Shown here one piece after another: positions 1-27,109 of a stretch of 64,000 nucleotides of DNA. The stretch covers positions 1,664,001-1,728,000 of the forward strand of contig OZ243972.1 in assembly GCA_965214705.1 (NCBI GenBank), written 5' to 3'. The first letter of the stretch is position 1; each line of letters begins with the position of its first letter. A program made the translations under genes and the position numbers. The notes below the pieces were generated by a model, which was not told the origin of the DNA, made no database searches, and saw nothing but the letters and a program-made list of their open reading frames with translations. The DNA is from Alphaproteobacteria bacterium (GTDB taxonomy: Bacteria > Pseudomonadota > Alphaproteobacteria > UBA828).

Positions 1-353
1 GCGCGGCCCGCCGGCGCTGCCGCCGACCCACAGGGGGAAACCGTGAGACGCCCGCTCGCTTCGGCCCCGCGCAACGGCGCCAAAGCGCCGACGCACGACC
101 GAACCTGTCTCCGCTTGAGCCGGGCTGACAGCCCTCGGCTCACACCCCGCTCAGTCCTCGCAGCGTGCGCCCGCATGCCTGCCGAAAGACCGGCGCGAGC
201 GTCGATTTTATGCGCAACTCTGCTGCCGGTGGATGCCGCCTGACGCTGACATCAGCGCACTTTCCACATAGCTCAACTTCGCCTCTCGTGGCCCGCGGCT
301 TCGTTCAAAAGGGTTGGGCAGGCTCTCGAGAGAGAGCCTGCCCAACCCTTAAC
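1..353 (+). mobile_element. 3' (putative ori) end of an IS91-family integrase+transposase element, copy 1 (runs off window start)
   Basis: Bases 1-356 are the reverse complement of 24102-24457 except for the palindrome loop; includes the transposase stop at 44-46, the 15-bp GCGGCTTCGTTCAAA motif (295-309) and the terminal palindrome. Confidence 0.9.
309..350. repeat. Perfect palindrome, 19-bp arms with GAGA loop, at the IS91-like end
   Basis: AAGGGTTGGGCAGGCTCTC-GAGA-GAGAGCCTGCCCAACCCTT. Confidence 0.95.
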
Positions 354-4147: not shown

Positions 4148-4226
4148 GGGTTTCGCATCGGTGACGCCATGGCCCGGCGCAACCCGGGCAACCTTCCGTG
4201 CAGCCTTTCGCAGCCGGGCTTCTCTC
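4148..4226. repeat. 79-bp dispersed repeat, copy A
   Basis: About 5 mismatches to 7888-7966, same orientation. Confidence 0.85.
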
Positions 4227-4589
4227 TCCCGATGCACTGTCAGCGCTTCGCGTGTCGCTTCCACGCGGGATCGAACGCACGCGTCCGAATTCCCGGCGCG
4301 GCGCGTCCTCGCACAAGAGCCATCCCCGCTCGTGGAATGCTTCGAGATTCACGCCGCCAGCGCAGGCCGGTTTATGGACGCGCCGACAATCCAGACTTAC
4401 ACCGTCGAGGACTATGTCGTGGGATGGAAGCTCGAAATGCCGAAGGCTGCATAGAAGAACGACACTCGCCATATACCTTGACGGCCTGATTGCCTCGCTC
4501 CGTCCGCTGGCCGAACGGTGTTGGCTGCGCGAACGCACCTCCTCGGCCGGGCGCTGCCGCCCCCACCGAGGGGATGGCGAATAGTACGC

Positions 4590-4890: not shown

Positions 4891-5058
4891 ACAACACAAC
4901 AACGGGCGCTCGTGAGAAGTTCGGCTTGGCATCGATCCCTTTGAGGGTCTGTTGGCGGATCGGTCCGGCGGCGCGCCTTCACGATCGAGGAGATCGATGA
5001 TGACCGGATAACCGGCCGGCGCCGCGAAGGACAGACTTATGTGCGCGCACTCTCGGTT

Positions 5059-7887: not shown

Positions 7888-7966
7888 GGGTTTCGCATCC
7901 GCGGCGCCATGGCCCGGCGCAACCCGGGCATCCTTCCGTGCAGCCTGTCGCAGCCGGGCTTCTCTC
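7888..7966. repeat. 79-bp dispersed repeat, copy B, just downstream of the relaxase remnant
   Basis: Near-identical to 4148-4226. Confidence 0.85.
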
Positions 7967-7983
7967 CACGGCGGCCCGGTCCA

Positions 7984-24070: not shown

Positions 24071-24411
24071 CGGCGACAGTCAGACCGGGCACGGACCGGA
24101 CAAGGTTAAGGGTTGGGCAGGCTCTCGAGAGAGAGCCTGCCCAACCCTTTTGAACGAAGCCGCGGGCCACGAGAGGCGAAGTTGAGCTATGTGGAAAGTG
24201 CGCTGATGTCAGCGTCAGGCGGCATCCACCGGCAGCAGAGTTGCGCATAAAATCGACGCTCGCGCCGGTCTTTCGGCAGGCATGCGGGCGCACGCTGCGA
24301 GGACTGAGCGGGGTGTGAGCCGAGGGCTGTCAGCCCGGCTCAAGCGGAGACAGGTTCGGTCGTGCGTCGGCGCTTTGGCGCCGTTGCGCGGGGCCGAAGC
24401 GAGCGGGCGTC

Positions 24412-25653
24412 TCACGGTTTCCCCCTGTGGGTCGGCGGCAGCGCCGGCGGGCCGCGCGTCGAGCGGGGCTCATGGCGGCGGCGGATTTCGCGGACGAGGC
24501 GCATGACGCCGCCGCAGTGGGGGCAGGCCACGGGCGCGGTGCCGATCTCGGGCTCTTCGTCGGGCTCGGCCCGAGCGCCGTCCACGCTTCCCTCGGGGGC
24601 GGCGCAGCCGAGGGCGCCGAGAGCCTGGCGTGCTCTCTCCAGCGTGCTGGCGCGGCAGCCGTTGGCGAGGATGCCGAAGTAGCGAATGCGGTGCATGCCG
24701 TCCGGCAGGACGTGCCTCAGGAAGCGGCGGATGAACTCGTCGGCGCTCACGGTGGCGATGCCGTAGCGCGGCTTTCTCTGCCCCGGCGCCTTGGGCTTTC
24801 GGTGGCGGAAGGAGACCGTCTCGCCGTCGAAGGAGACGATGCGGCTGTCGGAGATGGCGATCCTGTGCGTGTAGTGCGAGAGGTACCGGAAGACCTGCTC
24901 AGGCCCGCGGAAGGGCCGCTTGGCGTAGACCACCCAGTCCCTGGCCCGGGCGGCGGCAAGCGTGGCGTGGAACTCGCCGGGATTGGCGAGGTGGGCGAGG
25001 GTGCCGTGGAACTCCAGGTCCCCCCGGCCGTGGGCGCGGGCGAGCTCCTCGAGGAAGAGGCGGCGGAACAGGCTGCCGAGGACCTTGACGGGGGCGAGGA
25101 AGGTGGTGCTCCCCGTCTTCCACTCGCCACTGTCTACGTCGAAGCCCGCGTTGGGCACGACCACGTGCAGGTGCGGGTGGAAGCGGAGCTTCTGATCCCA
25201 GGTATGGAGGACCGCGGTGCCGCCGATGCGCATGCCGCCGTGGCGGGGATCGGCGGCGATGGTGCGCAGGGTCTCGGCGACGGCCCGGAAGAGGATGTCG
25301 AACACCACCCTGCGGTTGCAGAAGGCAATGGCGGCAACCTCCTTGGGCAGGGTGAAGACCACATGGAAGTAGGGCACCGGCAGGATGTCCCCGGCGCGCT
25401 CCTCGCTCCAGAGGTTGGCGGCGAGACCCTGGCAGGTGGGGCAGTGGCGGTTGCGGCAGGAGTTGAAGAGCGGATGCTCGCGCCCGCAGCCCTCGCAGGC
25501 GTACATGTGGCCGCCGAGCACGGCGGTGCGGCACGCCTCGATGGCGCCCATGACCTTGAGCCGGGCGGCGTCGATGCGCCCTTTGTGGCGCTCACGGAAA
25601 GCGGCGCCGGCGCGGCGGAAGATCTCCGCCACGCCCGCGCGTTCGGCCTCCAC
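24412..25653 (-). CDS. IS91-family rolling-circle (Y2) transposase
   Basis: NSCRNRHCPTCQ Zn finger, YFHVVFTLP, LHTW...HPHLH (HUH), YLSHYTHR. Confidence 0.95.
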   Translation of the reverse strand: MEAERAGVAEIFRRAGAAFRERHKGRIDAARLKVMGAIEACRTAVLGGHMYACEGCGREHPLFNSCRNRHCPTCQGLAANLWSEERAGDILPVPYFHVVFTLPKEVAAIAFCNRRVVFDILFRAVAETLRTIAADPRHGGMRIGGTAVLHTWDQKLRFHPHLHVVVPNAGFDVDSGEWKTGSTTFLAPVKVLGSLFRRLFLEELARAHGRGDLEFHGTLAHLANPGEFHATLAAARARDWVVYAKRPFRGPEQVFRYLSHYTHRIAISDSRIVSFDGETVSFRHRKPKAPGQRKPRYGIATVSADEFIRRFLRHVLPDGMHRIRYFGILANGCRASTLERARQALGALGCAAPEGSVDGARAEPDEEPEIGTAPVACPHCGGVMRLVREIRRRHEPRSTRGPPALPPTHRGKP

Positions 25654-25659
25654 GCGCCG

Positions 25660-26538
25660 TCAGTTGCGCAACGCTGCGAAGCCTGAGATCGGGTGGTCGA
25701 GGCCCTCGAACATCTTGCCGGTGACGCGGGCGTAGTGACGGGTCGTGTTCGCGCTTCGATGGCCGAGCATGTCCCGGATCACCTCGATATCGCCGCCGCG
25801 CTCGAGGAGATGGGTCGCCGCCGAATGGCGCAGGCAATGGAAGGTGTAGCTGCGGTCGAGCTCGGCAATGTCGCGCGCCCTCCTGAAGGCGGCCTGCAAG
25901 GTCTCCGTTGCGATGGGCCTGTCGAGCGAGACGCCGTAGAAGAGCCAGCTCGTCGGACGCGGCCAGATGTTCCTGTAGTAGACGCGCAAGTAGTGGATGA
26001 CGATGTCCGGCAACGGTGCCATTCTCTCGGTGCCGCCTTTGCCGGAGGGGATGTGCAGCAGCTTCTTCTCCGACAGGATGTCGCCGACCTTGATGGCCAA
26101 GGTCTCGGAGATGCGGAGCCCGCCGCCATAGCCGGTGACAATGGCAGCACGGTGGCGGAGGTCGGGTGTCGCAAGGATGAGGTGCTCGACCTCCTGCTCC
26201 GACATGTAGCGCGGCAGCTTGCCGGGCTTCTTGCGGGAGCGCAGGCCGGCGACATGGTCAGGCCAGCCGAGTGTGTCGATGTAGAGGAAGTTCAGCGCGG
26301 CGAAGGAGACGTTGGTCGTGCCCGGACTGAGCCCCTTGTCGATCCGCCCCAGGTACCACTGGCGCACCTGCTCGGCGTCGAGCTCGTCCGGCGAGGCGTC
26401 GTAGTACCTGGCCAGGTTCTTGATCTCGCAGATGTAGGCCTTGGACGTGCTCGCGGCCAGATTGGCGATGCGGAGCTGCTCCTCCATGCGCTGGCGAAGA
26501 GGGGTGACGGTGTTCGTGTCGCACGCGGTCCCGGTCAT
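25660..26538 (-). CDS. Tyrosine recombinase/integrase
   Basis: TPLRQRM N-terminus, GLRISE, HCLRHSAATHLLE, LGH...TRHY. Confidence 0.93.
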   Translation of the reverse strand: MTGTACDTNTVTPLRQRMEEQLRIANLAASTSKAYICEIKNLARYYDASPDELDAEQVRQWYLGRIDKGLSPGTTNVSFAALNFLYIDTLGWPDHVAGLRSRKKPGKLPRYMSEQEVEHLILATPDLRHRAAIVTGYGGGLRISETLAIKVGDILSEKKLLHIPSGKGGTERMAPLPDIVIHYLRVYYRNIWPRPTSWLFYGVSLDRPIATETLQAAFRRARDIAELDRSYTFHCLRHSAATHLLERGGDIEVIRDMLGHRSANTTRHYARVTGKMFEGLDHPISGFAALRN

Positions 26539-27109
26539 TATCGATCTCCCTGGATCGCGACGGCGCGCCGCCGGACCGATCCGGCGACGGTCCGTCGCAG
26601 GGGTCGATACTAACCACTGGTGATCGGGAGGCTGCTGGGGATCCGCCACCCGACGGGCGGAGCGCCACTGACGCAACCGGGAAGCGAACGCACAGAACAA
26701 ACGGCACCCGCGACGCCTCGGAAATGAATGAACTCTACGCCGCTAACTCCGCGTAGCGGCTTCGTTCAAACACATCTGCAGTTGGGCGCGTCGATCCAGC
26801 CGATGAAGGCGCGCTGGACAGGTTCACCGTTCGTGTCTTGGGAGTCGCTATTGCGCAACCGACAACACCGCACGTCGAAGGCGACCAGATCAGGGACGAA
26901 GGCATGTCCCCCAATCCGTTCGAGATCGACGCCTACCCGCCGTCACAGGTGGCGCGGAACTCCTCACTCGAAACAATCTCATCACCGTGGCCTGGGTGTT
27001 GTTCGGCACGCAGTTAGGGCGCCGATCGGCGTTATAAGGTGTTGATGTGCTTCGATTCAGAGGGGTCAAACGGCGATGCTTAACAACAGATTACCCGCGC
27101 CGAACAACA

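Follow-up and report, generated by a model that had tools for sequence, protein, structure and literature searches.

A reverse-complemented hairpin loop at the right end of a high-copy IS91-family element is probably a rare, heritable template-switch mutation

The window, that is, the whole 64,000-nt stretch of DNA analysed here, lies on contig C1 of an alphaproteobacterial genome (G000; 3 contigs, 7.9 Mb). It contains the right end of one copy and the whole of a second copy of the same insertion sequence (IS), placed in opposite orientations. Loops are named as read on the element strand, GAGA being form A and TCTC form B. The features are as follows.

1–354, + strand: copy 1, last 354 bp of the IS (element positions 2313–2666), form A; the copy extends to the left of the window
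C1:1660039–1664354 (genome coordinates): copy 1 as a whole, with a 1649-bp IS110-family insertion in tnpA that lies outside the window
295–308, + strand: right terminal inverted repeat (IRR) of copy 1, 14 nt, complementary to element positions 1–14
309–350, + strand: subterminal palindrome of copy 1, 19-bp stem, loop GAGA at 328–331 (form A)
351–354, + strand: tail AACC of copy 1, the final 4 nt of the element; the flank begins at 355 (TTC)
24104–26769, − strand: copy 2, full-length IS (2666 bp), form B; junction taken from the empty sites of three related strains
24108–24149, − strand: subterminal palindrome of copy 2; loop at 24127–24130, GAGA on the + strand and hence TCTC on the element strand
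24150–24163, − strand: IRR of copy 2, 14 nt
24412–25653, − strand: tnpA, IS91-family HUH (Y2) transposase, 413 aa (profile matches)
25660–26700, − strand: int, Xer/IntI-like simple tyrosine recombinase, 346 aa (profile matches)
26739–26760, − strand: small, weak left-end palindrome, 7-bp stem and 8-nt loop (fold)
26756–26769, − strand: left terminal inverted repeat (IRL), 14 nt, the terIS-side end (left junctions of full-length copies)

The element is a 2666-bp IS91-family IS with the order IRL, int, tnpA, approximately 250 nt of noncoding DNA, IRR, hairpin and AACC tail. TnpA matched the domains Y2_Tnp (2.7e-54, 184 bits) and Zn_Tnp_IS91 (4.3e-30, 104 bits) and scored 382.5 bits against the NCBIfam model transpos_IS91, for which the cut-off is 125; it therefore combines the HUH Y2 transposase with the N-terminal zinc-binding domain expected of the IS91 family. 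Int contained Phage_integrase (6.7e-33) and a SAM-like N-domain (Phage_int_SAM_4, 7e-12), and its best solved relatives were the XerC-like 4a8e, XerD (1a0p) and IntI4 (2a3v) at similar E-values; it scored under every NCBIfam equivalog cut-off. The first-pass annotation was thus right to call this an integrase-carrying IS91 element, a tyrosine recombinase gene lying upstream of a tnpA that matches the IS91-family profiles. IS91 elements with recombinases are mentioned in bioRxiv 10.1101/542381, and no useful hit came from a literature search directed at named IS91 elements that carry int.

The AACC tail was constant in 90 of 90 oriented ends and the sequence beyond it was variable. The 4 nt following ...TTAAC at these ends read CTTG in 41 cases, CTTT in 15, CTTC in 11 and otherwise in 23, so that 68/90 were CTTN; put as the flank past the tail, TTG was found at 41/90 and TTN at 68/90 ends, indicating insertion 5' of a TTG-type target. 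Insertion is therefore oriented, with the oriIS end beside a CTTG/GTTC-type tetranucleotide as is characteristic of IS91. Excerpts of the literature describe the same behaviour: IS91, IS801 and IS1294 have a CTTG/GTTC target by oriIS, make no duplication and carry subterminal palindromes at oriIS and terIS (PMC13181058), and IS91 inserts 5' of a tetranucleotide (PMC10288648).

Logan contigs of three related strains (runs X1, X15 and X17) carry the empty site of copy 2. Their flanks differ from the window at 14/588, 13/479 and 15/758 positions, respectively, and they run on from window position 24102/24103 without interruption to what lies past the left end of copy 2; in X15, 30 of 30 letters equal the far flank. 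Placement of the junction is ambiguous by a shared CAA only, and the insert is exactly the element, without a target-site duplication. Since these contigs join both flanks directly, copy 2 is a recent, strain-specific insertion made without target duplication. The element hence shares with the IS91 family the HUH Y2 transposase with a zinc-binding N-terminal domain, the lack of a duplication, the CTTG-like target and the oriIS subterminal palindrome. In contrast to the IS91-family palindromes, which PMC13181058 calls imperfect, its oriIS palindrome is single and has a perfect 19-bp stem. It also differs from the family in that the palindrome lies outside the 14-bp terminal inverted repeats and in a very high copy number of ∼91.

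A 42-nt palindrome with a 19-bp perfect stem is identical on the + strand at window positions 309–350 and 24108–24149, and both palindromes show the loop GAGA on that strand (328–331 and 24127–24130), as the first-pass annotation had reported for these inverted element ends. The DNA around them, however, is mutually inverted (inverted repeat 1–370/24088–24457). When 1–354 was compared with the reverse complement of 24104–24457, 4 of 354 positions differed, and all four were the loop bases (G/T, A/C, G/T, A/C); the earlier claim that the inverted loop is the sole difference in about 350 bp consequently holds over the full comparison. The similarity of the two copies ends at 354/355 and 24103/24104. 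Relative to the element, the loop of copy 2 is the exact reverse complement of that of copy 1, with its length unchanged. Because four neighbouring changes yield an exact reverse complement in otherwise identical DNA, they are not chance substitutions; the loop inversion between the copies is real and exact to the base.

Both forms folded equally well. The DNA fold centroid was −23.4 kcal/mol (z −7.0) for the copy 1 hairpin (form A) and −25.4 kcal/mol (z −8.5) for that of copy 2 (form B), which is as stable as form A, and single-stranded DNA folds of both forms on both strands gave centroids from −23.4 to −25.7 kcal/mol (z −7.0 to −8.5). The 7-bp stem of the left-end (terIS) palindrome appeared in the fold, with an energy not above that of shuffled sequences (z −0.67). 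A simple scan did not call the right-end hairpin as an intrinsic terminator. Across six related ends, compensatory changes were found in 3 of the 19 stem pairs, and 86% of cells in the relatives' stem alignment were paired, versus 24–47% when the partners were slid. PMC10288648 states that HUH enzymes in general recognise hairpins at element ends. By analogy with its family, the transposase most likely uses the hairpin to recognise the right end beside its cleavage site.

The genome contains 92 copies of the palindrome, of which 90 could be oriented by their flanks. On the element strand 84 of these ends carried GAGA (form A; 41 on + and 43 on −) and 6 carried TCTC (form B; 5 on + and 1 on −). 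Of the two non-orientable palindromes, one is solo; the other lies in a head-to-tail tandem, in a full-length copy that is B-like and raises the B-like count to 7 of 91 element ends. All 92 centres were 12 nt long and of form A or form B, and no centre of other length or sequence occurred among them. Besides copy 2, the flipped form was found at six loci, spread over all three contigs and each with unique flanks. An exact-pattern scan of genome and metagenome contigs for the hairpin with any centre of 0–16 nt gave no match outside this genome.

Two loop forms side by side recall parvoviruses and other rolling-hairpin replicons, which have flip/flop terminal palindromes. The first-pass annotation had proposed that the element may transpose through a hairpin or snap-back (rolling-hairpin) intermediate; a covalently closed hairpin of this kind would randomise loop orientation as at parvovirus termini. 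Both orientations do exist, the transposase is an HUH enzyme and, as in the viruses, two mutually inverted-complement forms stand beside the cleavage site of an HUH-type enzyme. The other copies are also not all fixed in one orientation, the outcome named beforehand as refuting the idea. However, the orientations were expected at about 50:50 under this proposal, and the count of 84:6 departs from that expectation with a binomial P of 1e-18. Unlike parvovirus termini, the two forms are thus far from equimolar, and they are inherited (the six B copies lie 0–1 mismatch apart, on 3 of 29 haplotypes). The long palindrome is present at the right end only, insertions resemble ordinary IS91 insertions, and the loops of relatives are fixed, in 8/8 ends of a related element and 7/7 of a second family. 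The palindromes do not terminate a linear replicon, the element being integrated at ∼91 sites. We therefore see practically no chance that true flip/flop operates here, and nothing is left to argue for transposition in an unusual, rolling-hairpin manner.

The six B copies sit at six different sites, are full-length and intact, and differ from copy 2 at 0–1 position over ∼2666 nt, whereas for A copies the four loop bases are the minimum difference from copy 2. All ungapped core copies (57 of 57), the six B copies among them, have retained intact reading frames for int and tnpA. Since the B copies are intact and at different sites, and copy 2 is absent from the empty-site contigs of the three related strains, both loop forms transpose and hand on their orientation. 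An IS91-family element can therefore still transpose after the loop of its oriIS hairpin has been reverse-complemented, so that what the enzyme reads is probably the stem and tail, not the loop. One flipped lineage grew to 6–7 of 91 copies. Loop orientation is usable as a lineage marker within a burst of ∼91 copies.

The tandem provides a second change at the same palindrome. It consists of two full copies in head-to-tail arrangement (C2:643960–649295, locus L049), with the right end of one abutting the left end of the next. It is the only right-end/left-end junction in the genome, and has the form expected of a circle junction. The excerpted text of PMC13181058 describes for IS91 single- and double-stranded circles with joined ends; likewise, oriIS is here joined to terIS in a head-to-tail junction, present once in this genome. 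A normal junction of this type would be a quasi-palindrome (IRR, stem, loop, stem, AACC, IRL) in which AACC is unpaired. The actual junction departs from this in two ways: its left arm has an extra GGTT opposite AACC, and its loop is flipped. Taken together, these two changes match, base for base, the reverse complement of the loop and right arm, so that the junction has become a perfect palindrome, with 37-bp arms and a fold of −55 kcal/mol. Because the GGTT and the flipped loop exactly copy the reverse complement of the opposite arm, we read the tandem junction as a template-switching signature; a single template-switch excursion would yield both changes.

Template switching is known to act in this way. 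The literature describes the classical correction of quasi-palindromes by template switching (PMC5941160) and loop or spacer inversion as a recognised outcome of it (PMC8794818; PMC8604942). As in such mutations, the new bases at the B loops are an exact reverse complement, length is kept and inverted arms flank the change: 4/4 loop bases are complemented and reversed between perfect 19-bp arms. The tandem junction adds a templated correction of arm asymmetry, GGTT opposite AACC, and this templated 4-nt insertion gives a longer perfect palindrome in the manner of the quasi-palindrome mutations treated in the same papers (PMC8794818, PMC5941160, PMC8604942). In contrast to described template-switch mutations, the palindrome is here the functional end of a mobile element, and the mutation was then copied to new sites.

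From this comparison we consider the flipped loop to be, with good probability, a rare heritable mutation of the oriIS hairpin that arose by template switching. A polymerase would rarely switch template inside the perfect 19-bp inverted repeat, moving perhaps to the opposite arm, to the complementary strand or to a different copy in reverse alignment. Synthesis of the 4-nt loop on the complementary template, followed by a return to the original one, would leave an inverted loop of the same length. The plain B copies would represent a smaller version of the tandem event, with the switch in one arm and the return in the other. Transposition tolerates both loop forms and reproduces each of them unchanged at new sites. 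Two further routes, exchange with a different hairpin and exchange between the inverted copies 1 and 2, were followed step by step by hand and rejected, as neither turns a loop around with respect to the element that carries it; the flip must therefore have arisen within one palindrome or by copying an oppositely aligned one. Template switching at HUH origins had been raised in the first-pass annotation. Of the ideas listed there it is the only one that fits, as a rare mutational event and not as a step of the transposition cycle. The mechanism is ordinary and the example new. It marks perfect palindromes at transposon ends as hot spots for template-switch mutation.

How often the flip has happened bears on whether the same strand-switch chemistry is instead coupled to transposition. 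The 57 core copies vary at 17 columns, and the loop accounts for 4 of these. Three internal SNP backgrounds (3 of 29 haplotypes) carry B loops, and all three are also found with A loops. A tree built without the hairpin columns needs three changes of loop state; good support is limited to 1 of its 26 inner branches. Taken at face value, the three backgrounds and three changes could mean that flipping is far commoner than replication errors, which would count against a rare template switch. The coupled reading would place the switch in the folded displaced single strand or circular intermediate, or at second-strand synthesis, where the intermediate joins oriIS and terIS into a long quasi-palindrome, and would have the loop flip in a few per cent of events. 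The three backgrounds with at least three state changes are in its favour, as are the flipped loop and templated GGTT at the sole right-end/left-end junction and the joined-end circles, single- and double-stranded, of IS91 in the excerpted PMC13181058.

However, four gametes were present among the A copies in 8 of 10 pairs of common SNPs, which points to frequent gene conversion or recombination among element copies. With haplotypes mosaic to this degree, the three B backgrounds need not be three events. Given also the single well-supported inner branch, exchange between copies would explain the three-background pattern equally well, and one to three flip events appear equally compatible with the copies in this genome. 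A rough estimate with assumed rates would lead us to expect about one in-situ event over the age of the family, and no flip was seen in 8/8 copies of the related element or 7/7 of the sister family. Coupling to transposition is accordingly an unlikely alternative that deserves some weight; the flips may arise while the chromosome replicates or in the folded single-stranded or circular intermediate.

A length change at the same spot in other strains suggests a different route. The palindrome centre reads (TC)2(GA)4 in form A and (TC)4(GA)2 in form B, and dinucleotide slippage could convert A to B in two steps via (TC)2(GA)2. In an X15 contig (depth 84) and in a low-depth X1 contig the letters corresponding to window 24127–24130 are missing and the palindrome is perfect. 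Exactly four loop letters are absent, as in the proposed intermediate, and the X15 contig shows a change of length that simple inversion does not predict. Because these contigs lack the four loop letters, the centre of the palindrome is generally unstable. Yet neither the intermediate nor any other length was found in 92 palindromes of this genome, one inversion is a more parsimonious path than two slips of two units each, and slippage leaves the GGTT gain at the tandem junction unexplained, so that we find this route quite improbable. A break in the X17 contig before the loop was rejected as a sign of mixed orientation, two other loci sharing the same 9-nt flank. Depth ratios suggest ∼15–30 copies of the element in the related strains.

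Near-identical repeats in 91 copies are hard to polish, and an assembly or polishing artefact was considered for this reason. The same exact 4-nt reverse complement is nevertheless present at seven loci on three contigs with unique flanks, and mis-polishing among repeats pulls towards the majority form and creates no minority form. An artefact is extremely improbable on these grounds.

The first-pass annotation had further suggested that the tyrosine recombinase of the element may invert the loop or otherwise rearrange the palindrome. int has been kept beside tnpA in two diverged families, both with a right-end hairpin, and the excerpted text of bioRxiv 10.1101/542381 groups IS91-borne recombinases with integron integrases, which act on folded hairpins. 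The geometry, however, is unfavourable: the inverted segment is 4 nt long between abutting 19-bp arms, which would leave no room for two synapsed sites, whereas an invertible switch has two inverted sites flanking a segment of synapsis length. Conservative exchange between two hairpins, worked through by hand, would never flip a loop relative to its own element. Int has no special closeness to IntI, and according to the same preprint (bioRxiv 10.1101/542381) the insertion that IntI requires to recognise its DNA is absent from IS91 recombinases. We judge inversion by the recombinase very improbable.

A different part for Int is conceivable at the folded oriIS–terIS junction, in which IRR pairs with IRL, followed by a 4-nt bulge and then the 19-bp stem. 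Xer recombinases and integron integrases act on the folded single-stranded hairpins of other rolling-circle elements. The flipped loop and templated GGTT could then be the footprints of strand switching in such a junction, on which the Xer/IntI-like Int might act in folded or cruciform form, for instance in resolving tandems or circles. We regard this as a long shot. If it were true, the past of the intermediate could be read from the orientation of the loop, and the recombinase carried by IS91 elements would have a defined substrate.

Relatives were used to polarise the change. Three divergent copies within the genome (42–47 mismatches), which root the tree, are form A, as are three more copies of that older variant. 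Right ends of ∼82% identity were found in 5 of 20 genomes of the same genus, two further weak matches in G026 and G040 (E ∼1e-4 to 1e-3) being to another part of the query and left out; a DNA search across the family (43 other genomes) added none to these five. On the element strand the loops of the relatives are TCTC (G005 and G014), TCCC (G017) and TCAT (G018 and G008), and their hairpin arms, found by alignment, differ from those of the present element. In G014 the same loop and the same arm mismatches occurred in 8/8 right ends that contain the repeat motif, a count that leaves out a ninth, weaker match. Because the relatives are TCTC-like and the divergent within-genome subfamily is GAGA, the simplest history would comprise at least two rare inversions over time: a first from a TCTC-like loop to GAGA before the expansion in this genome, and one or more later inversions back to TCTC in a recent sub-lineage.

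The genome also harbours a second, diverged int- and tnpA-carrying IS91-family element of ∼2.6 kb in at least 10 copies (for example C1:3503370–3505987, minus strand, locus L048). Its layout is that of the studied element and its 14-nt terminal repeats are similar. The right-end hairpin occupies the same place with an unrelated sequence, a 13-bp stem and an 11-nt loop, and the loop is identical in 7/7 right ends.

The studied element was inserted exactly at the left-end boundary of the second family three times and at the left end of its own kind once; on the basis of these four insertions, left ends are preferred targets. The solo palindrome of the census (C1:3505985–3506033, L048) has GGTT and AACC on its sides without an element body and adjoins the left end of the second IS91-type family. 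It could stem from deletion between two facing copies or from abortive transposition.

Copies that match from element position 1306 onwards were initially candidates for truncated elements, which was rejected when they proved to be full copies split by an insertion. Inside copy 1, to the left of the window, lies a 1649-bp IS110-family element (DEDD_Tnp_IS110 and Transposase_20; G000 C1:1661345–1662993), inserted exactly at element position 1306 within tnpA, and the same site is used in other copies. The two halves are 1650 nt apart in 10 copies, with larger, nested gaps in 4 more, and 2 further copies are split at element position 1293–1295. The loop of every interrupted copy is form A. The insertion looks like site-specific homing into an IS91-family transposase gene.

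Three smaller repeats were noted. Just outside one copy (G000 C3, ∼2473165–2473200) the 16-nt tip of the right end, comprising the tail and the start of the stem, is tandemly duplicated. Within the window, a 94-nt direct repeat of 87% identity is found at 4148–4241 and 7888–7981, 3740 nt apart. A 65-nt inverted match (80%) joins 4926–4990 to 26549–26613 in the int gene of copy 2, ∼21.5 kb away, and the stretch at 4926–4990 may be part of another recombinase gene or a fragment of one.
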